Below, one piece after another: positions 8,308-27,752 of a stretch of 64,000 nucleotides of DNA. Positions within the stretch are counted from its first letter, which is position 1. Every line of letters starts with the position of its first letter. The DNA comes from Kofleriaceae bacterium (GTDB taxonomy: Bacteria > Myxococcota_A > Polyangia > Haliangiales > Haliangiaceae): assembly GCA_048500355.1 (NCBI GenBank), contig JASNYD010000006.1, positions 416,211-480,210 of the forward strand, written 5' to 3'. Both the position numbers and the translations under genes were made by a program. The notes beneath the pieces are model-generated. The model was not told where the DNA came from. It ran no database searches and worked only from the letters and a program-made list of their open reading frames with translations.

Positions 8308-10733
8308 GCGCCGGCGATCAACGCTGGGTCTGCGTCCACGGCCACTTCTACCAGCCGCCGCGCGAGAACCCGTGGCTCGACGCCATCGAGCCCCAGCCCA
8401 GCGCCGCGCCCTACCCCGACTGGAACCAGCGCATCACCGCCGAGTGCTACCGGCCCAACGCCAGCGCCCGCATCGTCGACGCCCACGGCCAGATCCTGGG
8501 CATCGTCGACAACTACGCCCACATGAGCTTCAACGTCGGCCCCACGCTCATGGCCTGGCTCGAGCGGGAGGCGCCCGACGTCCACGACGCGCTGATCGAG
8601 TCCGACCGCGCCAGCCGCGCCCGCTTCAGCGGCCACGGCGCGGCCATGGCCCAGGCCTACAACCACCTCATCATGCCGCTGGCGACGCGGCGCGATCAGG
8701 TCACGCAGGTGCGATGGGGCGTGCGCGACTTCCGCCACCGCTTCGGCCGCAAGCCGCTCGGCATGTGGCTCCCCGAGTGCGCGGTCTCGACCGAGACCCT
8801 CGAGGTGCTGGCCGCCGAGGGCCTCGCCTACACCGTGCTCGCGCCGTACCAGGCGGCGCGGGTGCGGCCGCCGGGCGGCACCTGGCACGAGGTCAGCGCC
8901 GCCGAGCCGGGGCGGGTCTACCGCTGCCCGCTGCCGTCGGGGCGCGCCATCGACCTGTTCTTCTACGACGGCGAGCTGTCGCGGGCGGTCGCCTTCGACA
9001 AGCTGCTCGCCGACGGCGCCCAGCTCGCGGCCCGCCTGGCCGGCGCCGGCGGCAAGGGCGCGGCCGTGCTCTCGCACATCGCCACCGACGGCGAGACCTA
9101 CGGCCACCACCACCGCTACGGCGACATGGCGCTGGCCTGGGCGCTGGTGTCGATCGAGAAGGGCGACCACGCCGGCGCGCGGCTGACCGTCTACGAGCAG
9201 TACCGCGCCCGCTTCCCCGCCACCTGGGAGGTCGAGATCCGCGACGAGACGGCGTGGAGCTGCGCCCACGGCATCGATCGCTGGCGCGAGGACTGCGGCT
9301 GCAACGGCGGCGGTCACCCCGGCTGGAACCAGGCCTGGCGCCGCCCCCTGCGCGACGCCCTCGACTGGCTGCGCGATCGCGCCGCCGACGTGCTCGAGGC
9401 CGCGAGCAAGGGCCTGTTCGCCGATCCGTGGCAGGCCCGCGACGACTATGTGGAGGTCGTGCTCGAGCGGGACCGCGCCGACGACTTCCTGCGCCGCCAC
9501 GCCGGCCGGCCGCTGCACGGCGACGAGCGGGTGCGGGCGCTCGAGCTGATGGAGCTGGCCCGCCACGCGATGCTCATGTACACGAGCTGCGGCTGGTTCT
9601 TCGACGACCTTTCGGGGATCGAGACCGTCCAGATCCTGCAGTACGCGGCGCGGGTGTGCGAGCTGTGCGAGCGGCTCGAGCCCGGGCGGCGGGTCGAGGA
9701 CGCCTTCGTCGACCGCCTGGCCGGCGCCCGCTCCAACCTGGTCGGCGCCGGCGACGGCCGCCAGGTCTGGCGCGAGCGGGTGGTGTCGGCGCGGGTCGAC
9801 CTGCCCAAGGTCGTCGCCCACTGGGCCACCCTGCAGGTGCTGGCCGACGGCGAGGCCGCCGCCGAGGACGTCTACTGCTACCGGGTGACGCCGCGCGCGC
9901 TGACCCGGCGGCGCACCGGGAAGGCCCGGCTCATCGCCGGCATCGCCCGGGTGGCGTCGCAGGTCACCGGCGAGACCACCGAGCTGGCGTTCGCGGTGGT
10001 CCACGCCGGCGAGCACCACCTGGTGGGCGGGGTGCGCCGCGCCGACGACGCCGCAGCCTGGGACGCCTTCGCCGCCGAGCTGGTCGACGCCTTCCTCGGC
10101 GCCGATCTCCTCGCCACCCAGCGCGTGCTCGATCGTGGCTTCGGCGGCGCCACCTTCTCGCTCGGCTCCCTGTTCGCGCGCGAGCGTGGCGCCGTGCTCG
10201 AGCGCATCCTGGCCGCCGAGCTGCGCGACGCCGATCAGGTCTACCAGCGCCTCTACGACGAGCACGGCCCGCTCCTGCGCTACCTGGTGCGCCACGACCT
10301 GCCGGTGCCCGGGCCGTTCGCCAACGCCGCCGAGCAGGTGCTGCGCCGCCGCATCCTGGCCGCGCTCGAGCGCCCGGTGCCGAGCTTCGACGAGGTACGG
10401 GCGACGATCGCCGAGGCAGCGCAGGTCCGGGTCGATCTCGACACCCCGGCCATCGCCTACGCCGCCGGCCTGGCCCTGCGCCGGATGATCGATCACCTGG
10501 CGGCCGCGCCCGAGGATCCGGTGCCGCTCGAGCGTCTGGCCCGCCTGGCCGGGGTCGCCGCCGGCATGCGATCCCCCGTCGACCTGTGGGACGCGCAGAA
10601 CGCGGCCTGGCGCCTCCGCCGCGAGCGGCTGCCGGCGTGGCGGGCCCGGGCCGCGGGCGGCGACGCCGCCGCCGAGCAGATGGTGCGCGCGTTCACCCTG
10701 CTGGCCCAGGCGCTCCGCGTCGCCGTCGAGTAG
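8304..10733 (+). CDS. Glycoside hydrolase family 57 protein (alpha-glucan processing, with a DUF3536-type C-terminal extension)
   Basis: The GH57 N-terminal signature WVCVHGHFYQPPRENPW is present. The GTG start overlaps the glgB stop (GTGA), which suggests translational coupling. Confidence 0.85.
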   Translation: MSAGDQRWVCVHGHFYQPPRENPWLDAIEPQPSAAPYPDWNQRITAECYRPNASARIVDAHGQILGIVDNYAHMSFNVGPTLMAWLEREAPDVHDALIESDRASRARFSGHGAAMAQAYNHLIMPLATRRDQVTQVRWGVRDFRHRFGRKPLGMWLPECAVSTETLEVLAAEGLAYTVLAPYQAARVRPPGGTWHEVSAAEPGRVYRCPLPSGRAIDLFFYDGELSRAVAFDKLLADGAQLAARLAGAGGKGAAVLSHIATDGETYGHHHRYGDMALAWALVSIEKGDHAGARLTVYEQYRARFPATWEVEIRDETAWSCAHGIDRWREDCGCNGGGHPGWNQAWRRPLRDALDWLRDRAADVLEAASKGLFADPWQARDDYVEVVLERDRADDFLRRHAGRPLHGDERVRALELMELARHAMLMYTSCGWFFDDLSGIETVQILQYAARVCELCERLEPGRRVEDAFVDRLAGARSNLVGAGDGRQVWRERVVSARVDLPKVVAHWATLQVLADGEAAAEDVYCYRVTPRALTRRRTGKARLIAGIARVASQVTGETTELAFAVVHAGEHHLVGGVRRADDAAAWDAFAAELVDAFLGADLLATQRVLDRGFGGATFSLGSLFARERGAVLERILAAELRDADQVYQRLYDEHGPLLRYLVRHDLPVPGPFANAAEQVLRRRILAALERPVPSFDEVRATIAEAAQVRVDLDTPAIAYAAGLALRRMIDHLAAAPEDPVPLERLARLAGVAAGMRSPVDLWDAQNAAWRLRRERLPAWRARAAGGDAAAEQMVRAFTLLAQALRVAVE

Positions 10734-13383: not shown

Positions 13384-14106
13384 TCAACCGGCGTCGGCGG
13401 GGCCGGGGCCGGCCGACGGGTGGCCCAGCGCACACAGGGGCACCGCGGCCGGCACGGTGGCGAGGACGGCGGCGAGCTCGGGATCCCGGTCGGGCGGCGC
13501 GCCCTCGGTGACGGCGTAGAACTCGCGCAGGAAGGCGGCGATGATCGCGCCGTCGAGGGTCGGCGGCGCCGGCTCGTCGACGAACGCGATCAGGACCAGG
13601 CCGCGATCGCGGGGCTCGCCGCCGACCAGGCGCGGCTGGACGTAGGGGTGGTCGACGACGCGCGCACCCCACCGCTGGAAGCGCCCGAGCCGCGCCCACG
13701 CCTCGTCGGCCTCGGCTGGCGGGCAGCGCCGCGGATCGATGACCTCGGCGAACAGCGCGCGCGCGCCCGCCAGCTCGGCGCGGACGCCGTCGAGGAGGCC
13801 GCGGGCGAGGCCCCGCCGGCGCGCCGCCGGCGCGACCACCAGGTAGGTGAGGATCGCGCACCCGCTGGCCGGGTAGCGCTCGCAGACGATGCCGCCGTCG
13901 AGGCGGGCACCGGCCGCGTCGTCGAGCTCGGCGCCGGCGAGCACGATCGCGAGCTGGTAGGGCGGCGCCGGCGCGAACAGCCGCGCGTGCCAGGTCGCCA
14001 GCGCCTCGCGCTGCCGCGGCGCGAACGCCGGCACGTAGAGCTCGTCGTGGAAGCGCAGGAGGAGCGGCGCCTGCGCCGGATCGCGGATCGTGACGCGCTC
14101 GCTCAT
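13384..14106 (-). CDS. GNAT-family acetyltransferase-like protein
   Basis: GNAT core-like segment (LTYLVVAPAARRRGLARGLL). Coding bias is good. Confidence 0.55.
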   Translation of the reverse strand: MSERVTIRDPAQAPLLLRFHDELYVPAFAPRQREALATWHARLFAPAPPYQLAIVLAGAELDDAAGARLDGGIVCERYPASGCAILTYLVVAPAARRRGLARGLLDGVRAELAGARALFAEVIDPRRCPPAEADEAWARLGRFQRWGARVVDHPYVQPRLVGGEPRDRGLVLIAFVDEPAPPTLDGAIIAAFLREFYAVTEGAPPDRDPELAAVLATVPAAVPLCALGHPSAGPGPADAG

Positions 14107-15631
14107 TGGTCCACCCTCCGGTCGTGGCCGCCAAGAAGTTGCGCGCGCGATCCGGTAAGCGGAGGGTGACGCTCAGTTCCTCCAGCGCCCCTTCGAGGAC
14201 GGCCCTGCTCGCTGGCCGCTCGACGGCCCTCGTGAGACCTGCCGCCTCGAAGGGCGTGGGGGGACCTAACCGACAACAGGGTGTTGCGCCCCGACGGCGA
14301 CGTCGCGGAGCGCCTGTCAATGAGCGTTCGGTTGGTCCCTCTCGCGTTGGCGGACGCACCCACGAAGGAGCGTCCATGCGGTTCTGCGTAGGTCTCGACT
14401 GGGCATCGCGCGAGCACGCCGTCTGTGCGATCGACGACAAGGGCGCCATCAAGGCGCACTTCACCGTCGAGCACTCGGCGGAGGGCATGGCGAAGCTGGC
14501 GGCGCAGCTGCGCAAGCTGGCGGCGCCCGAGGAGCTGGCGATCGCGATCGAGCGCCCCACCGGGCTGGTCGTCGACACGCTGGTCGAGGGTGGCTTCAAG
14601 GTGGTGCCGATCCATCCCAACGTGGTCAAGGCCTCGCGCCCCCGTTACTCGGCGGCGCAGGGCAAGTCCGACCTCGGCGACGCGTATCTGCTCGCCGACC
14701 TGCTGCGCACCGACGGGCACCGCTTCCGGGTGCTGACGCCGCAGTCCGACGAGACCAAGGCGCTGCGCGGGCTGGTACGGCTGCGCGACGACCTGGTCGG
14801 GCAGCGGGTCGGCATGGCCAACCAGCTGCGCAACCTGCTCGAGCAGTTCTGGCCCGGCGCGGCGGCGATCTTCGCCGACGTCGACTCGCCGATCGCGCTC
14901 GAGTTCCTCGAGCGCTACCCGACGCCGCAGGCCGCGGTCGGACTGGGCGAGAAGCGCCTCGCCGCGTTCCTGGCGCGCCATGCGTACTGCGGTCGACGCT
15001 CGGCTGCCGAGTTGCTCGAGCGCCTGCGCGGCGCACCCGTCGGCCACAACGGCGATCTCGAAGCCGAGGCCAAGGGCGAGTGCGTCCGCGCCCTTGTCGC
15101 GGTGCTCAAGCCGCTCGTGCTCCAGGTCCAGGTGCTCACCGCTGCCGTCGAACACGCGGTCACGGCGCACCCCGACGGCCTCGTCGTGACGTCGCTGTTC
15201 CGCAGCGGGCGCGTCTGCGCGGCGCAGATCCTCGCCGAGCTCGGTGACGACCGCGCCCGCTTCACGTCGGCCGAGCACCTGGCCGCCGAGGCCGGCGTCG
15301 CGCCCATCACCCGCGAATCCGGCAAGCGCCGCGCCGTCGGCTTTCGCTGGGCCTGCAACAAGCGCCTGCGCGCCGCGTTGACCTGCCTGGCCGACGCCTC
15401 GCGCCACACCTCGCCATGGGCCGCCGCGCTCTACCAGAGCGCCAAGGCTCGCGGCTGCGATCACCCGCACGCCATGCGCATCGTCGCGCGCGCCTGGTGC
15501 CGCGTGCTCTGGGCCTGCTGGCAGAAGCGCGTCGCCTACGACCCCGGCAAGCACGCCGCCGCGCTCAAGTTCACCCCTCGCATCGTCGGCAAGGAGGCCG
15601 CGTGACGCGAAAGAGGTTGACACAGGGTGTC
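14107..15631 (+). mobile_element. IS110-family insertion sequence, about 1.5 kb
   Basis: It carries a single DEDD-type transposase. A non-coding flank of about 270 bp with GC lower than the rest of the window and hairpins precedes the gene. The element fills exactly the gap between the GNAT start and the amidase stop. No terminal inverted repeats, as expected for IS110. Confidence 0.6.
14376..15605 (+). CDS. IS110-family transposase (DEDD recombinase)
   Basis: N-terminal MRFCVGLDWAS (the DEDD_Tnp_IS110 type). The C-terminal Transposase_20 motif is present (AAQILAELGDDRARFTSAEHLAAEAGVAPITRESGKR). A GGAG ribosome-binding site lies 7 nt upstream of the ATG. Confidence 0.9.
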   Translation: MRFCVGLDWASREHAVCAIDDKGAIKAHFTVEHSAEGMAKLAAQLRKLAAPEELAIAIERPTGLVVDTLVEGGFKVVPIHPNVVKASRPRYSAAQGKSDLGDAYLLADLLRTDGHRFRVLTPQSDETKALRGLVRLRDDLVGQRVGMANQLRNLLEQFWPGAAAIFADVDSPIALEFLERYPTPQAAVGLGEKRLAAFLARHAYCGRRSAAELLERLRGAPVGHNGDLEAEAKGECVRALVAVLKPLVLQVQVLTAAVEHAVTAHPDGLVVTSLFRSGRVCAAQILAELGDDRARFTSAEHLAAEAGVAPITRESGKRRAVGFRWACNKRLRAALTCLADASRHTSPWAAALYQSAKARGCDHPHAMRIVARAWCRVLWACWQKRVAYDPGKHAAALKFTPRIVGKEAA

Positions 15632-16582: not shown

Positions 16583-19104
16583 TCAGCGCCAGAACGCCCA
16601 GCCCTTGCGCCGCGGCGGTGCGCCTGGACCGCCGCCGGGGCTGCCGGCGTCGGTGACGAGCGCGCGCAGGGCGGTCACGACCTCGGCCACCACGGTCGGC
16701 AGGTCGGCGGCGGCCAGCGCGCCGCGCAGCCGGTCGACCAGCGGGGCCAGCGCGCGCGCCAGCTCGTGGAGCCCGACGGTGCGGGCGTCCTCGAGCAGCT
16801 CGGCCAGGCGCGCCACCGGGAGCTGGGCGGCGGCCGCCGGCACCGCCGCGGTCGCGGCGCGCGCCAGCTCGTCGGCGAGGCCGCGCAGCCGCGCGAGGTA
16901 CGGCGCCGGGTCGAGGCCGGGGGCGGAGGCGGCGTCGGCCTTGGCCTCCTCGGCCTCGAACGCGCGCGCCTCGGCGCGCTTCTTCGCGTCGCGCACCGGC
17001 GACGGCGACGGCGGCGCGCCGGGGAGGCCGGGCGGTCCGAACGCCTGGCCGCGACCGTGGACGGCGCCCGGCGGCGCACCCGCGGGTGCGGACGGCGGCG
17101 CGCCCGGCGACGGCGGGGCGCCCCCGGCGGACCGGATGGACGGCGCCCTGGCCGGCATCGCCGCGGCGGACATCGCGTACGACAGCGCCACCGGGGGCGA
17201 CGGCGCGGCGACGGACGCCATGCCGCCCTCCCATCCGGCCGGGTGCTCGACCGGCTGCGTGATCACCTGCGGGTTGCCGCCGGGGTTGACGACCTGACGA
17301 TCGACCGCGACGAACGCGGTGAAGCGAGACAGCACGCGGTGGCGGAGCGAGACGTCGACGATGCGCTGCTCGAGCGCGGCGCGGTCGGGCGCGCCGGCGG
17401 CGTAGCGATCCTCGAGGTCGCGGAGATGCGCTCGCGCCCACGACTGGGCCAGCGCCGCGCCCGGGCGCGCCGAGTCGAGCGTGACCCGCTCCACGTACTC
17501 GGTGCCGGCGGGCAGGCGGCCGCGCACCTCGAGCACGGCGCCCGGACGAGGCCGGCCGCGCCAGCGCGCGCGCACGACCAGCGGCGCGCCGGCGAACACC
17601 GCCGGCAGCCGGTGCGGGGCCAGGGTGGACGGGTCGAGCTCCGCGCCGTGGAGCGAGACGTCGACCAGCACCGGGATGGCGACCCGCCGGTGGACCTTGT
17701 CCATGACCGCGTCGAGGCGGTCCTCGCTCTCGACCAGCTCGCAGGCCCCGCCGCCGGCGGCGGCCAGGCGACGCAGGAACGCGGCGTTCACGGCCTGGTC
17801 GATGCCGAGGGTGAACACGCGCACGCCGCCGAGGCGCGGAGCCAGCCGGCGCAGGATCTCGTCCTCGTTGCCGACCTGACCATCGGTCACCAGCACCAGG
17901 ACCCGGTCGCGCTCGCCGCCGCCGGCGAGCAGGCCGGCAGCCAGCTCGAGCGGTCGCGCCAGCTCGGTGCCACCGCGGGCGGCGACCCCGGCCAGGAACT
18001 CGACGGCGCGGAAGCGGTTGCGATCGCCGCCGCTGGCGAGCTGGGTGCCGAGCTCGCGGGGCGCCTCGATCGAGGTGTCGAAGGCGAGCACCGCGAAGCG
18101 GTCGCGCTCGCCGAGGGTGTCGACGATGCGGGCGGCGGCGCGGCGCGCCGCCACCATCTTCCAGCCGTCCATCGAGCCCGAGCGATCGAGCACGAGGACG
18201 AGGTCGCGGGGGAGGCCGGCGGCGGCGGCGCCCGCCGGCGGCACCAGCGTGACGGCGACGGTCGCGCCCTCGCCGTCGTCGTCGGGCGCCCACACCGCGG
18301 CGCTGCGCAGCGCGGCGTCGCCCACGGTCCAGCGCAGGATGAAGTCGCGGTCGAGGCGCTCGCCGGGACGGAGCTCGACGCGCCAGCCCGCGCCGTCGGC
18401 GACGGCGTGGACCTCGTGCAGGCTCGAGCGCAGGGCGGCGAGCGGCAGGCCGCCGCCGTCGACGGTGACCGCCAGGCTCAGGCGCACCGGGTTGGGGAAG
18501 CCGGGCAACCGCACCGGCGGCGAGATCCGGGAGGCGTCGGGCACGCGATCGGTGTCGGCGCTGGTGCCGGTGCCGGCCTGCTCGCCGTCGAGGGCGGCGC
18601 CCGGGATGTAGCGCGGCGCGACCACGAGCGGGAAGGCGAACGTGACCTCGCCGTCCTCGACCGGCAGCGGGCCGACGAGGTGCAGCGTGATGACCGCCAC
18701 GTCGTGCGGCATGAGGTTGCCGACCCGGAGCGTGAACACGCCCGGGCGATCCTCCTCGGCGATGGCGGCCCGCTGGCCGGCGGCGATGGCGCGATCGTAG
18801 GTGTCGCGGGCGCGGCCGCGCTCGTCGATGACGCCCTCGACCACGCGGCCGGCGACCTCCATGCGGAAGCGGTGCACGGCGGCGCGATCGGGCAGCGGGA
18901 AGATGTACGTGGCCTCGATCGGCGCGCCGGTCGCGTTGACGAAGGTCTGGCGGAGCTCGGTCGCGACCTCGAGGCCGGTGACCCGGGCCTCCACCGACAG
19001 CGCGGTCAGGGGCAGGAGCCCGCGCGGGGTCTCCAGGCAGCCGAGACCGCCGTCGCCGCGAGAGGGGTAGGTGAGCGTGGGCTCGATGGTGACGGGCAAG
19101 GGCA

Positions 19105-19108
<4 letters not shown>
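16583..19108 (-). CDS. VIT-domain plus von Willebrand factor A-domain protein with a Pro/Ala-rich C-terminal tail
   Basis: N-terminal VIT-like region (LPLTALSVEARVTGLEVATELRQTF), a vWA domain with a MIDAS motif (LVLVLDRSGSM) and a long low-complexity tail. The ATGATG start overlaps the upstream MerR stop (ATGA), and a GGAGG ribosome-binding site is present. Confidence 0.85.
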
Positions 19109-19812
<704 letters not shown>

Positions 19813-19821
19813 CCATCCACC

Positions 19822-19846
19822 ATGACACTGTCATATGACACTGTCA
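19822..19846. promoter_or_regulatory. Tandem dyad TGACAcTGTCA-ta-TGACAcTGTCA, a candidate MerR-type operator in the divergent promoter region
   Basis: Two copies of an 11-bp inverted repeat form a near-perfect 24-bp palindrome. It lies 10-35 bp upstream of the MerR GTG, in the only AT-rich stretch of the region. Confidence 0.45.
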
Positions 19847-21172: not shown

Positions 21173-22105
21173 TCAGCGCTTGCGCAGCGCCGTGAGGTGG
21201 CGCGCGGCCTCGGCGCGGATCACCTCCGCCAGCAACCCCAGCTCGCGCCCGCGCGCCGACGACATCCGCCACACCAGCCCGACGTCGCGGCCCGGCGCCG
21301 GCGCCAGCTTCGCGCTGGCCACGCCGGTGCCCCGGCCGGCCAGGACCGCGGCCGACATCTCGGGCAGGAGCGTCACCCCCTGCCCGCTCGCCACCATCTG
21401 CACCAGCGTCGGCAGGCTGGTCGCGCGCAGCTCCGCCACCTCGTGCGAGCCGGCGTGGCTGCACACCGCCAGCGCCTGATCGCGCAGGCAGTGCCCGTCC
21501 TCCAGCAGGAGCACGTCCTCGCCCGCCAGGTCGTCCTCGCGCACCCGCGCCCGCCGCGCCAGCTCGTGGGCCAGCGGCGCCGCCAGGAGGAAGTGCTCGC
21601 GGTAGAGCTGGATCGCCGCCAGATCGCCCGGCACCGGCAGCGCCAGCACCCCGGCGTCGAGCCGGCCGTCGTCGAGCTGGGCGAGGACACGGGCGGTCTG
21701 CTCCTCGCGCAGGATCAGGCGCAGCTCCGGGTACGCCGCCCGTACCGCCGGCAGCACCACCGGCAGGAGGTAGGGCGCGATCGTGGGGATCACGCCGAGG
21801 CGCAGCGTGCCCGACAGCGGCTGGGCCGCCGTCCGCGCCACCTCGGCGATGGCAGCCGCGCTGGCCAGCGTCGCCCGCGCCCGCGCCACGATCTCGGTGC
21901 CGGCCGCGGTCACCAGCACCTTGCGACGGTCGCGCTCGAAGAGCTGGACGCCGAGCGTCTCCTCGAGCTGGGCGATCTGCGCCGACAGCGCCGGCTGGGT
22001 CACCATGCACGCCTCGGCCGCGCGGCGGAAGCTGCGATGGTCGGCGACCGCGACCATGTACTCGAGCTGGCGGAGCGTGAAGCCGACCTTCATGAGGATA
22101 GACAC
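21173..22105 (-). CDS. oxyR: LysR-family hydrogen peroxide sensor/regulator OxyR
   Basis: The OxyR redox-Cys region is conserved (VLLLEDGHCLRDQALAVCSH; compare E. coli LEDGHCLRDQAMGFCF). The LysR helix-turn-helix lies at the N-terminus; the real start is probably the Met at 22093. Confidence 0.85.
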   Translation of the reverse strand: MSILMKVGFTLRQLEYMVAVADHRSFRRAAEACMVTQPALSAQIAQLEETLGVQLFERDRRKVLVTAAGTEIVARARATLASAAAIAEVARTAAQPLSGTLRLGVIPTIAPYLLPVVLPAVRAAYPELRLILREEQTARVLAQLDDGRLDAGVLALPVPGDLAAIQLYREHFLLAAPLAHELARRARVREDDLAGEDVLLLEDGHCLRDQALAVCSHAGSHEVAELRATSLPTLVQMVASGQGVTLLPEMSAAVLAGRGTGVASAKLAPAPGRDVGLVWRMSSARGRELGLLAEVIRAEAARHLTALRKR

Positions 22106-22217: not shown

Positions 22218-23294
22218 ATGTCGCTCCGCCTCGCGCTCGCCGTGCTCCCCGCCCTCCTCCTCGCCGGCTGCCGCGGGGGCGCGGCGCCGACCGCCGGCGG
22301 CGGCACCGCGGCGCCGGCGAGCGGGTCGGCCGCACCCGCCGCGCGCACCCCGGCGGCGGTGCCCGCGGACTACGCCGCGGCCCGGGCCCGCACCGAGCGC
22401 GAGGGCCGCGCGGCGCTGACCCTCCTCCTCGACGGCGACCTGGCCGAGCTCCACGCCTGGTTCCAGCCCGCGCTCGCCGAGCTGGCCTCGATCGAGCTCC
22501 TCACCCAGGTCCGCGCCCAGCTCACCGCCGCCGGGCCGGTCACCCGCGGGCCCGAGGCGGTCTTCCTCACGCCCGCCGCGCGCGGCTACCTCGGCGACCT
22601 CGTGACCGCGAGCGGCACCGTCACCGCCAGCATGGCGCTCGACGACGCCGGCAAGCTCGCGGGCCTGACCTTCGTGCCCCGGCCGCCGCTGCCGCCCGAC
22701 CCCCACGCCGACCGCCCGCTGCGCGCGCGCCTGCGCCTACCCTTCGACGGCCAGTGGTTCGTGTTCTGGGGCGGACCCAGCGCCACGGTCAACTACCACG
22801 TGGTCGCCCCCGACCAGCGTCACGCCTACGACCTCGTGATCTGGAAGGACGGCGGCACCCACACCGGCGACGGCACCCGCAACGAGCAGTACCACTGCTG
22901 GGGTCAGCCGGTGCTGGCGCCGGCCGCCGGCACGGTCGTCGCCGTCGAGAACGGCCTGCCCGACAACCCGCCGGGCAAGATGGACGCGAGCGCCAAGGCC
23001 GGCAACCACGTCGTGCTCGATCTCGGCGACGGGGCCCACGCGCTCCTCGCCCACCTGCAACAGGGCTCGGTCGCGGTGCGGCTCGGCGATCGGGTCACCG
23101 CCGGCCAGCGGCTCGGCCTCACCGGCAACAGCGGCAACACCAGCGAGCCCCACCTGCACCTCCACCTCCAGGACGGCCCCACCCTGTTCCGCGGCGCCGG
23201 CCTGCCGGTGTGGTTCGACGACGCCTGCGTCGACGGTCAGCCGCCGGCGCGGGTCGCCCCGGTGCACGGCCAGTTCGTCGAGCACTGTCGCTGA
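22218..23294 (+). CDS. M23-family (LytM-like) peptidase lipoprotein
   Basis: Lipobox LLAGC and M23 motifs (HAYDLV, GNSGNTSEPHLHLHLQ). Confidence 0.8.
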   Translation: MSLRLALAVLPALLLAGCRGGAAPTAGGGTAAPASGSAAPAARTPAAVPADYAAARARTEREGRAALTLLLDGDLAELHAWFQPALAELASIELLTQVRAQLTAAGPVTRGPEAVFLTPAARGYLGDLVTASGTVTASMALDDAGKLAGLTFVPRPPLPPDPHADRPLRARLRLPFDGQWFVFWGGPSATVNYHVVAPDQRHAYDLVIWKDGGTHTGDGTRNEQYHCWGQPVLAPAAGTVVAVENGLPDNPPGKMDASAKAGNHVVLDLGDGAHALLAHLQQGSVAVRLGDRVTAGQRLGLTGNSGNTSEPHLHLHLQDGPTLFRGAGLPVWFDDACVDGQPPARVAPVHGQFVEHCR

Positions 23295-23331
23295 CGCCCG
23301 CCGCGCGTGGGCGCCGGCGCGGGCCCGCGCG

Positions 23332-24342
23332 TCAGCCGGCGCGCTCGTCCAGGTGCCGCCGCACCAGCCGCGCGCACCACGCGATCGCGCCGGTCGCCAG
23401 CAGCAAGAACACGACGAACAGCGGCAGGCCCTGGGCGCCGTCGAGCGTCGCCCGCCACTCGATGGCGTGGGCGCGATCGACCTCGCGCAGCGCCGCCACC
23501 GCGAGGAACAGCGCGACCGCGCCGACGGTGACCAGCCGTCGCCCCGCTCGCCCGCGCCCGCCGGCGAGCGCGACCATCCCGGCCGCGGTCACCGCCGCGC
23601 CGCTCCCCGCCAGCACCAGCCACGGCGTGGCCATCGCCGGCAGCTCGCCGGCGCGCCCGCCGACCGTCCCCACCGCCGCCGCCGCCGCCACCGCCAGGCC
23701 GGTCAGCCCGAGCCCGCCCAGGCGGCGCAGCTCGCCGCGTCCCGCCCGCGCCGCGGCCAGCCACGCCGCGCCGGTCGCGAACGCCACCGCCGCCAACCCC
23801 AGCCACAGCGCCAGACGGACGGCGATCACCGGGTCGCGGTGGACGACGCGACCGTCGCGGTAGTGCGCGACCCAGGTCTCGGCGCCGGCGGCGGCCAGGG
23901 TGTGCTCCTCGATCCACGACCACGCGACGAAGAGGAACGCGAGCAGGGCGGCGCCGCTCACCAGCCCCCGCCGCGCCCGCGACCACGCCTGCGCCCGCAC
24001 GCTCTTGCCCAGGTACAGCAGGTAGAAGCCGGCGATGAGCGCCGGCACGATCGCCATGAAGCGGTGCGACATGAGGAGCGTCGCCGTGTACACGCGGTGC
24101 TGGTAGAGGACCTGGATCAGCAGCAGCGGCGCCACCCCGGCGGTGATCGCCGCGCCGAGCGCGAACGGCAGCCAGTCGCGGGCCGCCGCCGCCACCGGAT
24201 CGTCGCCGCCGACGAGCGCCCGCGCCGTCGCCCACGCCGCCGCGCCCAGCACGAAGCCGACGAGCAGCGCGTGGGCGGCGAAGGTGAGCACGAGCAGGAG
24301 CACGTAGCCCCCCGGGCCGCCGAGGTCGGCGAACAGGCTCAT
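23332..24342 (-). CDS. Polytopic membrane protein, possibly a cytochrome bd subunit II-like partner of the upstream CydA-like gene
   Basis: About 8 predicted TM helices. Its ATG overlaps the upstream gene's stop (ATGA). The subunit II assignment is by position only. Confidence 0.5.
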   Translation of the reverse strand: MSLFADLGGPGGYVLLLVLTFAAHALLVGFVLGAAAWATARALVGGDDPVAAAARDWLPFALGAAITAGVAPLLLIQVLYQHRVYTATLLMSHRFMAIVPALIAGFYLLYLGKSVRAQAWSRARRGLVSGAALLAFLFVAWSWIEEHTLAAAGAETWVAHYRDGRVVHRDPVIAVRLALWLGLAAVAFATGAAWLAAARAGRGELRRLGGLGLTGLAVAAAAAVGTVGGRAGELPAMATPWLVLAGSGAAVTAAGMVALAGGRGRAGRRLVTVGAVALFLAVAALREVDRAHAIEWRATLDGAQGLPLFVVFLLLATGAIAWCARLVRRHLDERAG

Positions 24343-25814
24343 CGCGCACCCCCGCGCCCACCACCCGCGGCCTCGCCCGGCGGCCGCGGCCGCTCCGGCG
24401 CCGGCGCGGTGCCAGCCTCGTCGAGCCAGCGCGCGATCTGCGCCAGCGCCGTCGGGTCGTCGGACACCGGCCAGGCGGCCGGCGCGCCCGCCGCCTCCCA
24501 GCGGATGAGCTGGGCCACCGCCTCGACCTCGGTCGCCGGGCCGGCGAACGGCGGCATGAAGCCCTTGGTCTCCTGCAGGCGCGCGATCGCGATGCGGAGC
24601 TGCTCGAGCGACCAGGCGCCGCCGAGGTGGACCAGGCCGTTGGCGCCCTTCATCGTGTGGCAGGCCGCGCACTGCAGCCGCACCACGCGCGCGCCGAGGG
24701 CGAGCTGCGCCGTCGGGTAGCGCGCGGCGTCGCGCAGCGGGTACGGATCGCGCGCCACCGAGCCCTCGGCGCGCAGCCGCGCGACCTCGGCCGGCGCGAT
24801 GGCGTTGGAGTACAGGACCTGCCGGATCGTGAACGGCTTGCGCGCGCCCTCGCGCACGAACTCGCCGGCGGCGGTGGCGCCGAACGCCAGCGCCAGCAGG
24901 AGCGCCGCGGTCGCGCCGCTCACGTACAGGCGCCGCCACCAGATCCCGACGAGCGCGTAGGCGCCGATCAGCAGCGACGCCCCGGCGGCCAGCGCCAGGA
25001 ACATCGACATCGCCACGCTGCCCCCGGTCAGCCACGCCCGGCTGTCGGCGGGGATGACCGCCACGTACCACAGCCCCAGCGCCGGCATCGCCGCCATCGG
25101 CACCAGCAGGCGCGCGGCGCGGGCGAGGAGGGCGTGGCGCGCGGCGCGGTCCAGCTCCATCGTGTTGATGACGGCGATCGCGGCCAGCGCCCCCAGCGTG
25201 CTCGACACCGCGACCCGGTAGAGCAGCGACGGCCAGAAGCTGGGGTTGAAGAAGCCGGCCCACACGTCGCCCGAGGCCAGCCACGCCCCCGGGGTGAGCT
25301 GCCACGACAGGATGCCGTTGATCCAGAACAGGCTGCCGAACGACGCCAGCGCGTAGGTGGCGAGCAGGCGCAGGCGCACGCCGTCGGGCAGGCGCTCGCC
25401 GTAGCGCAGGAACATGTAGCCGGCGACGATCTCGACCGCGAAGCAGCACCACTCGATCGCCCAGATCCAGTGGAACTCGTCGACCATGAGCCCGATCGTG
25501 CGCGGCCCGACCTGGATCGTCGTCAACCACATCGCCACGCCGGTCAGGGCGCCGGTGACGAAGCTGACCAGCACCAGGTACTTGAAGAAGCTGTCGAGGA
25601 AGCGGCGAGCGTCGGGCACGCCGCGCCCGGCCAGCCACTGGAAGTACGTCATCAGGAACCCGCCGCCGATCGCGAACTGGGCGAGGAAGACGTGGAGGAT
25701 GCCGACCGCGCCGATGACCATGCCGCGCATCGCCGGACCGAAGTCGTTGACCGGGTAAGCGGTCGGCTCCATCCCCGCTGGGATGATGCCACCGCCGGCG
25801 CCGGCATGCGTCAT
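24339..25814 (-). CDS. Cytochrome bd oxidase subunit I (CydA) superfamily protein with a C-terminal mono-haem cytochrome c (CxxCH) domain
   Basis: Alignment by eye to E. coli CydA helices 1-4: ILHVFLAQFAIGGGFL against MYHFLFVPLTLGMAFL (His19 equivalent), GALTGVAMWLTTIQVG against GVATGLTMEFQFG, WAIEWCCFAVE against LAIEGLMAFFLE, and SLFWINGILSWQ against ALWILVANGWMQ. The C-terminus carries CAACH. Confidence 0.6.
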   Translation of the reverse strand: MTHAGAGGGIIPAGMEPTAYPVNDFGPAMRGMVIGAVGILHVFLAQFAIGGGFLMTYFQWLAGRGVPDARRFLDSFFKYLVLVSFVTGALTGVAMWLTTIQVGPRTIGLMVDEFHWIWAIEWCCFAVEIVAGYMFLRYGERLPDGVRLRLLATYALASFGSLFWINGILSWQLTPGAWLASGDVWAGFFNPSFWPSLLYRVAVSSTLGALAAIAVINTMELDRAARHALLARAARLLVPMAAMPALGLWYVAVIPADSRAWLTGGSVAMSMFLALAAGASLLIGAYALVGIWWRRLYVSGATAALLLALAFGATAAGEFVREGARKPFTIRQVLYSNAIAPAEVARLRAEGSVARDPYPLRDAARYPTAQLALGARVVRLQCAACHTMKGANGLVHLGGAWSLEQLRIAIARLQETKGFMPPFAGPATEVEAVAQLIRWEAAGAPAAWPVSDDPTALAQIARWLDEAGTAPAPERPRPPGEAAGGGRGGAR

Positions 25815-25858
25815 CGCGTCGCGGCGATCGGCCGGCCGCGGGCTCGCCCCGCCTTCGC

Positions 25859-27403
25859 TCAGGGCGCGAGGCGGGCGACGAAGGCGTCGGGCTTGGCCAG
25901 CTTCGCGCCCTCGGCCTGGACCGCGGTCGGCCCGCCGGGGACGAGGTCGAGCGTGAAGCGGTAGGCGCCCGAGACGTAGGGCGTGCCGTCGCGGCCGATG
26001 GCCACCGCCAGCCCGACGTCCTGATCCTTGGCCCCCCAGCGCCGGCTCCACACGTGGGTGCCGGCGGCGTCGAGCTTGAGGAAGAAGCCGTCCATGTAGC
26101 CGGCGGTCTTGAACGGGCCACCGCCGAGGTCGATCGTGGTCTCGAAGCCGCCCACGACCACCAGGTTGCCGGCGGCGTCGGCGGCGACGCCGAGCCCGAC
26201 GTCGGCGCGCTCGCCGCCGTAGGTCTTGACCCACAGGAGCTTGCCCTCGGGCGACAGCCGGGCCACGAACACGTCGGACTCGCCCTTCGACAGCACCGGC
26301 GTCCCCAGCACGTCGAGGTCCTTGTCGAACGAGCCGGTGATCACGACGTGGCCGGCGGGGTCGACGGCGAGCCCGCCCGCCCGCTCCTGGAACGGGTTGC
26401 CGAGGCGCACGCTCCACACGTGGTTGCCCACCGGATCGAAGCGGGCCACGAACAGGTCGTCGTCGCCGGCGCTCTTGTGGGTGGTGCCGCCGAGCGTGAT
26501 CGTGCCCTTGAAGCGGCCGAGGGCGTAGATGTTGCCGGCGGGGTCGACGGCGACGTGGCTCACCTCGTCGGGGTACTCGCCGCCGAGCTGGGTCACCCAC
26601 TCGACCTCGCCGCCGGCCCCGAGCTTGACCAGCGCCGCGTCGTCGCCGCCGCGCGAGGTCACGGTGGTCGCGCCCAGCGCCACCTCCTGGCCGAACGACA
26701 CCGCGACGATCCAGCCGCCGTCGCCGGCGGCGGCGATGGCGGTGGCGGCGTCGGAGGCCGGGCCGCCGGCGGTCCACAGCCACTGCACCTCGCCGGCGGG
26801 GTCGAGCCCGACCACGAACAGGTCGTCGGAGCCGGTCGCCTTGCCGCTCAACCCGCCGGCGGTGACCGTGCTCGAGAACAGCCCGGTGGCGGCGACGTTG
26901 CCCTTGTCGTCGACCGCGACCGCGTCGCCCCGCTCCTCGTGCTTGCCGCCGATCGTCGTCACCCAGCTCACCGCGCCGCTGGCGTCGAGCCGGGCGACGA
27001 AGGCGTCGCTCTTGCCGGCCGCGGTGCGCGCGCCGGCGCCGGCGAAGGTCGCGGCCTCCTCGAAGTCGCCCACCGCGTACACCGCGCCGTCGCCTCCGAC
27101 CGCGAGCCGCCGCACGATGTCGACCCGGGTGCCGCCGAGGCTCGTGACCCAGGCCACCGCGCCGGTGGCGCCCGGCGGCGACTCGGCCAGCGGTGGCAGC
27201 GGCCGCGGCGGCGGCGCCACCCGCGGCTCGGCCGGCGCCGCGCTGCCGGAGGCGCTGCCGGACCCGCTGCCGGCGCCGTCGCGCTCGACCTTGCCGGCCC
27301 CGGCCTTGCCGGCCGGCTCCTTCTTGCCGCAGGCGACGAGGGGAACGGCCAGGGTCAGCGCGACCGGGCCGACGAGGGCGAGCGAGACGAGGCGTGTGCG
27401 CAT
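25859..27403 (-). CDS. Lipoprotein with beta-propeller (SBBP-type) repeats
   Basis: Lipobox LVACG. Repeated units of the form G..VWS...G.....G..VAVD..GN.YV.G.F.G.....G. Confidence 0.65.
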   Translation of the reverse strand: MRTRLVSLALVGPVALTLAVPLVACGKKEPAGKAGAGKVERDGAGSGSGSASGSAAPAEPRVAPPPRPLPPLAESPPGATGAVAWVTSLGGTRVDIVRRLAVGGDGAVYAVGDFEEAATFAGAGARTAAGKSDAFVARLDASGAVSWVTTIGGKHEERGDAVAVDDKGNVAATGLFSSTVTAGGLSGKATGSDDLFVVGLDPAGEVQWLWTAGGPASDAATAIAAAGDGGWIVAVSFGQEVALGATTVTSRGGDDAALVKLGAGGEVEWVTQLGGEYPDEVSHVAVDPAGNIYALGRFKGTITLGGTTHKSAGDDDLFVARFDPVGNHVWSVRLGNPFQERAGGLAVDPAGHVVITGSFDKDLDVLGTPVLSKGESDVFVARLSPEGKLLWVKTYGGERADVGLGVAADAAGNLVVVGGFETTIDLGGGPFKTAGYMDGFFLKLDAAGTHVWSRRWGAKDQDVGLAVAIGRDGTPYVSGAYRFTLDLVPGGPTAVQAEGAKLAKPDAFVARLAP

Positions 27404-27531: not shown

Positions 27532-27738
27532 ATGCGCGTGGTCGGAGATGACGACGGCGTCGCGGCGCTCAAGGCGCTGGCCGCCGACAACCGTGACTAC
27601 CTGAAGTTCCTGATCACCGAGGCGCAGTCCAACAGCGACCACACCGCCTCCTTCCGCGCCGCCGACGACACCCGCTGGGTGGTCCGCTTCCACCCGGAGT
27701 CCGGCGAGCTCGAGGTGCGACGCGTCCCCGCGCCGTGA
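27532..27738 (+). CDS. Small hypothetical protein (68 aa)
   Basis: High GC3. Its stop overlaps the GTG of the downstream ORF. No homology recognised. Confidence 0.4.
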   Translation: MRVVGDDDGVAALKALAADNRDYLKFLITEAQSNSDHTASFRAADDTRWVVRFHPESGELEVRRVPAP

Positions 27739-27752
27739 CGTATGGTCGCACC

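Follow-up and report, generated by a model that had tools for sequence, protein, structure and literature searches.

Here we describe a pair of adjacent genes related to the cytochrome bd oxidases, located in a stretch of DNA of 64,000 nucleotides (nt) from a Kofleriaceae bacterium (hereafter the window; G+C content ~76%), to which all coordinates below refer. The locus spans positions 23332-27403 and comprises three genes, all co-directional on the minus strand. The first encodes an SBBP-repeat beta-propeller lipoprotein of 514 amino acids (aa; 25859..27403) and is followed, after a gap of 86 nt, by the gene for subunit A (24339..25772), a 477-aa CydA-like protein which, judging by Pfam (PF01654 and PF13442), AlphaFold2 and Foldseek, carries a fused class-I cytochrome c domain and is of the OR-C1a type. 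A longer form of subunit A could start from an alternative ATG at 25814, but its homologues begin at the Met of MEPTAYPV instead. The third gene (23332..24342) encodes the partner, subunit A', a 336-aa protein with nine predicted helices that is, by profile homology, a haem-c-free paralogue of CydA (CydA', OR-C1b-like). Its ATG overlaps the TGA of the subunit A gene as ATGA, an overlap that had been pointed out in an earlier, sequence-only reading of this DNA and that can be read directly from the letters. Scans of the locus detected neither an Rfam family nor a sigma-70-like promoter, nor any convincing terminator.

The membrane and haem c domains of subunit A

The sequence-only reading had proposed that the middle gene encodes a CydA-like protein fused to cytochrome c, and profile searches bore this out. 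Subunit A matched Pfam Cyt_bd_oxida_I (PF01654) significantly (E 1.2e-12; 47.6 bits, gathering score 26.2) over profile positions 10-224 of 418, and residues 370-435, counted on a 491-aa form of the protein, matched Cytochrome_CBB3 (PF13442) at 27.6 bits (cut-off 27). A sequence-profile search of the PDB returned cytochrome c matches only (cytochrome c6 and c551, E 1e-4) and no bd oxidase; the link to the solved bd oxidases therefore needed Pfam, a broader profile and a comparison of folds. For the last of these, subunit A was modelled with AlphaFold2 from a 34-sequence alignment (mean predicted local distance difference test score, pLDDT, 80). The model has eight membrane helices (residues 12-49, 55-88, 90-127, 130-159, 179-202, 209-239, 242-279 and 286-309), followed by a linker and a small helical domain at 327-453, and a Foldseek comparison placed bd oxidase subunits in all of the top 20 PDB matches, CydA chains first (E 2e-5, probability 1.00). 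Sequence and predicted fold, the latter being the bd-subunit fold of two four-helix bundles, make subunit A a divergent bd-superfamily protein with a haem c fusion, and it has more than 1339 homologues.

In the model the membrane domain occupies residues 12-309 (24846..25739, minus strand). Only a few residues make up its periplasmic loop between transmembrane helices 6 and 7 (TM6 and TM7), which leaves subunit A without a Q-loop. The Arg-rich loops, as read from the sequence, alternate as expected for a protein with both termini outside, which places the CAACH domain in the periplasm (a prediction); the loss of helix 9 from subunit A likewise leads to a C-terminal cytochrome c domain on that side. 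This domain (residues 327-453; 24414..24794, minus strand), assigned to class I from PF13442 and the PDB profile matches, contains the haem c motif CAACH at residues 368-372 (24657-24671, minus strand) and a putative distal ligand, Met406 (24555-24557, minus strand).

To map individual residues, we aligned a profile of 106 sequences, representatives of the wider family on which the conservation counts below are based, with E. coli CydA using hhalign (E. coli cydA and cydB were taken from NC_000913). The alignment was significant (E 4.7e-5) and collinear over E. coli residues 7-459; with shallow, orthologue-only alignments the scores were non-significant and the register was correct. All of the motifs named in the sequence-only reading, namely the His19 position, the GALTGVAMWLTTIQVG loop, the AIE...E motif and the C-terminal CxxCH, were indeed found. 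His27, in GILHVFLAQF (25692..25694, minus strand), corresponds to E. coli His19, the axial ligand of an active-site haem; it is invariant in 34 orthologues and kept in 102/106 representatives. Within AIEWCCFAVE, the segment EWCCFAVE (25431..25454, minus strand) supplies Glu107 and Glu114, which align with Glu99 and Glu107 of E. coli CydA in the proton channel and haem site, each of them Glu in 102/106; six residues separate these two glutamates in subunit A and seven in E. coli CydA. Ser147 aligns with E. coli Ser140 (Ser or Thr in 105/106) and Arg133 with His126. Gly74, Gly78 and Trp82 are each conserved in 105/106, CxxCH is present in ~100/106, and Met is found at the position of Met406 in 95/106.

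At the periplasmic end of TM8, GEFVREGARKP (24834..24866, minus strand) aligns with GWFVAEYGRQP of E. coli CydA, which makes Glu308 the probable equivalent of E. coli Glu445, a ligand of the second active-site haem. This segment is highly conserved: Glu304 is found in 100 of the 106 representatives, Arg307 in 104, Glu308 in 100, Arg311 in 102 and Pro313 in all 106, so that ExxRExxRKP at the end of helix 8 is near-invariant in the OR-C1a-like family. The haem-ligand positions His27 and Glu308 are thus retained across the family.

The residues that serve quinol oxidation present a different picture. At the start of TM5, NPSFWPSLLYR (25215..25247, minus strand) aligns through Asn176-Pro177 with E. 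coli Asn177-Pro178. The sequence-only reading had His186 replaced by Arg; it was right that no His is found there, but the residue aligned with E. coli His186, a ligand of haem b558, is Tyr185 (mostly Phe or aliphatic across the 106 representatives), and the Arg is the next residue, Arg186, which aligns with E. coli Thr187 and is Arg in 105/106. The E. coli Q-loop (~150 residues) was unmatched in the alignment with the subunit A family profile, and no Met is conserved at the position of Met393 among the 106 representatives. Met255 was considered as a Met393 equivalent and rejected, since it is not conserved family-wide. The absence of the Q-loop together with that of His186 and Met393 argues that subunit A has no haem b558 and does not oxidise quinol. 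On this alignment, subunit A retains the ligands of the two active-site haems and the proton channel and loses the quinol-oxidising machinery.

The partner subunit and the conserved gene pair

The downstream gene had been described as encoding a small protein that could be the analogue of subunit II. With 336 aa and nine predicted helices the partner is hardly small, and it does occupy the position of subunit II, but it is not CydB by sequence. No Pfam or NCBIfam family matched it, including CydB (PF02322), and comparisons with E. coli CydB gave no match either. A PDB sequence-profile search with the partner found nothing credible, a second profile search retrieved only unannotated orthologues, and the source-supplied names among the partner homologues listed all read 'hypothetical protein'. 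The predicted structure nevertheless has a bd-subunit fold in fold comparison. When an alignment of partner sequences was compared by hhalign with the membrane profile of the diverse, 106-sequence OR-C1a family, the match was significant (E 1.5e-4) and ran collinearly for 275 columns, pairing His24 of the partner (24271-24273, minus strand), the His19 equivalent, with His27 of subunit A, and Arg286-Glu287-x-x-Arg290 (23473-23487, minus strand), in which Glu287 is the Glu445 equivalent, with Arg307-Glu308-x-x-Arg311.

These positions are strongly conserved in the partner itself. Among 159 orthologues, His24 is kept in 157, Gln77 in 159, His147 in 158, Arg176 in 159, Arg286 in 159, Glu287 in 156 and Arg290 in 159, and CxxCH occurs in none of them. 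His147 is a Tyr in the partner of Polyangium jinanense SDU13 (WTENYLL; locus L050, ~9390-10474). The partner reads AIV where subunit A has AIE, and both channel glutamates are gone; helix 9, lost by subunit A, is kept. The hypothesis that the partner is a CydB homologue was rejected, given the missing PF02322 match, the profile homology to the CydA side and the retained His and Glu. By profile homology the partner is, instead, a divergent CydA paralogue (CydA', OR-C1b-like) in the subunit II position. As the channel glutamates are missing it is probably not catalytic, whereas the His and Glu kept at haem-ligand positions suggest that a haem may be bound in the partner as well.

To assess how widely the pair occurs, a narrow pattern scan was run over one genome per GTDB species. 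Relatives of the subunit A gene were found in at least 360 species, which argues that the gene is not a product of chance, and 80 loci were fetched for neighbourhood analysis. The Myxococcota among them include Kofleriaceae, Haliangiales, Polyangium fumosum DSM 14668, P. jinanense SDU13 and other Polyangium isolates, the remaining loci being from Planctomycetota and one Eiseniibacteriota. By tblastn, the partner lies directly downstream of the subunit A gene in all 75 loci where this could be tested (the contigs of the other five end too early), and in P. jinanense both genes are intact. Identity across loci is 60-87% for subunit A (from Myxococcota to Planctomycetota) and 30-69% for the partner, which points to A as the catalytic subunit, under the stronger constraint. 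A similar asymmetry in conservation has been reported for cydA and cydB. An exhaustive HMMER search with the orthologue profile against 1.84 billion cluster representatives yielded 997 clusters at E <=1e-3 and 237 at E <=1e-30; the full-length wider relatives (E 1e-44 to 1e-125) carry 1, 2, 3 or 8 CxxCH motifs, the first of them near residue 365.

All-against-all clustering of the neighbouring open reading frames (ORFs) showed that only the two-gene module is universal; the unit consists of two genes, A and A'. Genes for redox partners, Ccm or CydDC did not recur among the neighbours of the related loci, nor were any seen among 15 neighbouring window ORFs in a partial scan. We noticed no small gene resembling cydX among the listed ORFs, although no targeted search for one was made.

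The sequence-only reading had counted the lipoprotein gene as part of a three-gene operon, which raises the question of whether the lipoprotein might serve the oxidase as a periplasmic partner, that is, as electron donor, docking or assembly factor. The gene is co-directional with the pair across the 86-nt gap, with no convincing terminator between the genes, and has a GAGGA ribosome-binding site; its product, with the lipobox LVAC at Cys25, would be periplasmic like the haem c domain, and a homologue is kept upstream in closer relatives. That homologue is nevertheless present upstream in only 8 of the 80 loci, all of them closer relatives with lipoprotein identities of 50-99%; it adjoins the pair in four of these and lies 1.5-4 kb away in the other four, and at one of the latter (L002) the gap between lipoprotein gene and pair holds a gene on the opposite strand, kinase-like by eye. 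The lipoprotein also contains no redox motif. Its only match to pass a cut-off was the generic SBBP repeat (PF06739; E 1e-7), the comparison with the LipL53-type family of Leptospira (NCBIfam NF047494) giving 116.6 bits, below the cut-off of 400. Given this and the universality of the two-gene module alone, we consider a role for the lipoprotein in the enzyme highly improbable; the co-conservation that the sequence-only reading had wished to see checked is restricted to those eight loci, and the lipoprotein is therefore left out of the system as a lineage-specific neighbour.

Relationship to known bd families and proposed function

Murali, Gennis and Hemp (2021; bioRxiv 10.1101/2021.01.16.426971) divided the bd superfamily into qOR, OR-C and OR-N. 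In OR-C, CydA typically has eight helices, lacks a quinol site and is extended at its C-terminus by a periplasmic haem c region; His19, Glu99 and Glu107 are conserved, His126 poorly so, and Ser140 is sometimes Thr. The spacing of six residues between the glutamates is that of the non-qOR1 families. An adjacent cydA paralogue, OR-C1b, is stated to have eight helices and to be in a 'b-type' state, in which the glutamates are lost. Many OR-C1b are listed in Table S7 of that study as haem-free 'hypothetical proteins' encoded beside OR-C1a, for which the number of CxxCH motifs varies (1, 2, 3 or 8 reported), and the phylum table places OR-C in Myxococcota and Planctomycetota. That OR-C is an oxygen reductase fed by cytochrome c is a prediction in that paper too.

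The pair described here agrees with this account in most respects. Subunit A has the eight helices, the C-terminal periplasmic CxxCH (as predicted), an aromatic residue at the His186 position and no quinol-site features; it keeps His19, Glu99 and Glu107 with six-residue spacing and a Ser/Thr at Ser140. The OR-C1a reference of Table S6 (Murali et al., 2021) gives H24, V77, W80, E105, E112, S145 and F183, to which V79, W82, E107, E114, S147 and Y185 of subunit A correspond at a constant offset of +2, H27 against H24 being the one that does not. Likewise, the partner is adjacent, without the glutamates and usually annotated 'hypothetical', as OR-C1b is, and the 1, 2, 3 or 8 CxxCH motifs of the wider relatives reproduce the pattern of Table S7.

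Three differences stand beside these likenesses. First, the partner has nine predicted helices, not the eight stated for OR-C1b. Second, the Glu445 equivalent, marked absent for OR-C1a in Table S6, was found here to be conserved (E308, and E287 in the partner), which suggests that Glu445 is retained in OR-C1a. Third, the window clade departs from most of the family at four positions: at Gln32, 82/106 representatives have His; at His101, 74 have Val; at Arg133, 82 have His; and at Gln158, which corresponds to E. coli Met151, 99 have Met. In this clade of Myxococcota and Planctomycetota, the four residues may be the mark of a distinct OR-C subclade. By the published feature list the pair matches the OR-C type. 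The two-gene bd-related enzyme thus belongs to a kind already catalogued, and the class is not new. The sequence-only reading had called divergent, haem-c-fused bd members poorly characterised; this holds in that no biochemical study of an OR-C member was found in the searchable literature, where OR-C appears only as a phylogenetic class, but the class itself was defined bioinformatically in 2021.

Other members of the superfamily are less similar. With canonical CydAB (E. coli bd-I, 6RKO/6RX4; Geobacillus, 5DOQ) the pair shares the bd fold in both subunits, the active-site ligands and channel in A, and the gene order of large catalytic subunit followed by partner; it differs in that subunit A is without Q-loop, His186 and Met393, that a cytochrome c domain replaces helix 9 of A, and that the partner is CydA-derived by profile homology. 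CydAA' (qOR4a/qOR4b; Caldivirga maquilingensis and other Archaea) resembles the pair in having a duplicated CydA as second subunit, with His19 kept and Glu99/Glu107 lost. The archaeal CydA, however, keeps the quinol site and haem b558, has been shown to reduce O2 with quinol and has no haem c, and the Glu445 position is not conserved in archaeal CydA' whereas the window partner keeps it. The OR-N 'bd-like oxidases' of Nitrospirota and Nitrospinota are likewise homologous to CydA, lack a quinol site and are presumed to draw their electrons from cytochrome c, but they have 10-14 helices, retain His186, carry no fused haem c and are encoded in operons with other redox subunits.

We consider it probable that the pair forms a bd-type O2 reductase fed by cytochrome c, an A/A' heterodimer of membrane haem proteins of the OR-C type. 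The basis for this is homology, the predicted fold and topology, the conserved motifs and the pairing of the genes, and from these the haem content, the donor and the substrate are inferred. In such an enzyme, the fused haem c would accept electrons from periplasmic c-type cytochromes and pass them on to the active-site haems at His27 and Glu308, where O2 would be reduced to water. Protons would come from the cytoplasm via Glu114, Glu107 and Ser147, so that the reaction would help to build up the membrane potential although no protons would be pumped. The partner A' would replace CydB while descending from CydA, would probably be non-catalytic and may carry its own haem. A periplasmic cytochrome rather than quinol as the electron source had been put forward in the sequence-only reading; it gains support as the probable route, since neither a His186 ligand nor a Q-loop is present, in line with the published description of OR-C.

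Several points weigh against an O2 reductase of this kind. We found no experiment on any OR-C enzyme in the searchable literature, so that O2 reduction is extrapolated from the canonical bd oxidases. With haem b558 predicted to be absent, the passage of electrons from haem c to the active site, and the distance that it would span, is a weak point of the model, and the linker that would join the two domains (residues 312-324) is poorly modelled, with pLDDT below 50. Many OR-C carriers in the lists of Murali et al. (2021) are anaerobes, going by the organism names as read here, for which a role in O2 respiration is not obvious. The window clade, moreover, has Arg133 in place of the His126 equivalent and three further changes at positions mostly conserved in the family, and the partner has its additional helix relative to the eight stated for OR-C1b.

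The loss of haem b558 and of the quinol site would also fit a non-catalytic membrane module for haem handling or for relaying electrons across or along the membrane, with haems in both A and A', that is not a terminal reductase at all; the sequence-only reading, too, had allowed that the protein may not reduce O2. Such a module would also account for the retention, in both subunits, of His and Glu at haem-ligand positions and of an invariant Arg close to where helix 5 begins. In A, however, Ser147 and both channel glutamates are near-invariant and would have no obvious role in a pure relay, and all of the ligand positions lie near the periplasmic face, which makes electron transfer across the membrane unlikely. 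We therefore regard a pure relay as decidedly unlikely, and prefer the cytochrome c-fed O2 reductase.

The OxyR-like neighbour, the wider locus and biological significance

Beyond the pair, the commonest neighbour across the related loci is a LysR-type regulator gene, often immediately 3' of the partner. In the window, this gene (21173..22105, minus strand) lies 1.2 kb downstream of the partner on the same strand, and a gene for an M23 peptidase (22218-23294), on the strand opposite to both, lies in between. Its product was most similar to NCBIfam OxyR (NF008361; E 1.7e-85, 287 bits, short of the equivalog cut-off of 329; the next family scored 183 bits) and carries GHCLRDQALAVC, which we take to be the redox-cysteine motif of OxyR. 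A LysR homologue occurs 0.2-5 kb downstream of the pair in 23/80 loci (including L012, L022, L032 and L044), all of them Myxococcota, and the intervening genes differ.

This linkage is a weak hint of a connection with oxidative stress. It raises the alternative that the same architecture is not respiratory but serves as a periplasm-fed scavenger of O2, H2O2 or nitric oxide under oxidative stress, possibly under OxyR control. Persistence of the OxyR-like gene near the pair, adjacent to it in several loci, despite the differing genes in between would fit such a role, and canonical bd oxidases have been reported to have peroxidase or catalase-like activity and roles in nitric oxide tolerance. The many anaerobes among the OR-C carriers listed by Murali et al. 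(2021) point the same way. The linkage could equally be inherited gene order, however, for it is limited to Myxococcota, and neither the Polyangium nor the Planctomycetota loci showed a LysR/OxyR homologue near the pair. Inspection by eye of the sequence upstream of the operon revealed no AT-rich site resembling an OxyR box, and subunit A keeps the proton-channel glutamates typical of O2 reductases. On balance, we think a scavenging function unlikely.

A further possibility takes up both the regulator and the haem-ligand positions of the partner. Helix 1 of the partner holds a His, an invariant Arg lies close to where its helix 5 begins, and its helix 8 ends in RExxR; the same positions are invariant in subunit A. 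The enzyme might be a double CydA of pseudo-symmetric build, with haem bound by the partner as well. The haem or haems of the partner would take over from b558, whether by relaying electrons from haem c or by forming a second site of ligand binding, and in the Haliangiales-type Myxococcota the enzyme might act as a cytochrome c-driven scavenger of O2 or peroxide within an OxyR regulon. We offer this as speculation with rather long odds against it; were it true, the haem arrangement would be one unseen in any solved bd oxidase.

The wider surroundings of the pair vary between close relatives. The window is 98.6% identical across 10.4 kb to a contig (L001) of an uncultured, myxobacterial-type metagenome-assembled genome, 'delta proteobacterium PRO4'. 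This contig is collinear with the window, yet it has ~190 additional nt right after the partner stop codon (window 23305-23332), and two further contigs terminate just after that stop codon, where L001 has its extra nt. On the other side, a metagenome contig that is 98.5% identical (L082) departs from the window past ~27809, with genes for a radical SAM/SPASM protein and MopE replacing a HEAT-cyclophilin gene. The latter encodes a 739-aa protein (27735-29954, plus strand) with HEAT repeats, a C-terminal cyclophilin-type peptidyl-prolyl isomerase domain and, by eye, an N-terminal lipoprotein-like signal. Divergent from the SBBP lipoprotein gene is a gene of 68 aa (27535-27738, plus strand), also gene-called in three near-identical contigs (L082-L084). 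Further afield are an IS110-family transposase (14106-15605, plus strand; DEDD_Tnp_IS110 and Transposase_20) and two large VIT/vWA-type proteins (16583-19834, minus strand, and 34633-37527, plus strand), one of them with a proprotein-convertase P-domain by Pfam and the other recognised by eye only. A MerR-like gene, likewise recognised only by eye, with a long (Asp-Ala)n repeat (19105-19812, minus strand) overlaps the ORF frame of the first VIT/vWA protein.

To conclude, three superfamilies of O2 reductases are known, and OR-C is a branch of one of them that has been delineated from sequences; no purified OR-C enzyme was found in the searchable literature. To its description we add the family-wide ExxRExxRKP and the invariant Arg beside the lost His186, a partner that shares the ligand positions, the placement of the lipoprotein outside the unit and a refined residue signature of the family. 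The clade of this locus has many members, is strongly conserved and includes cultured Polyangium strains, so that the enzyme is open to experimental study and the OR-C hypothesis can be tested there. If the pair is a true cytochrome c:O2 oxidoreductase, bd-type chemistry would not be confined to quinol oxidation, and a copper-free terminal oxidase would be added to the respiratory chains of these aerobes.

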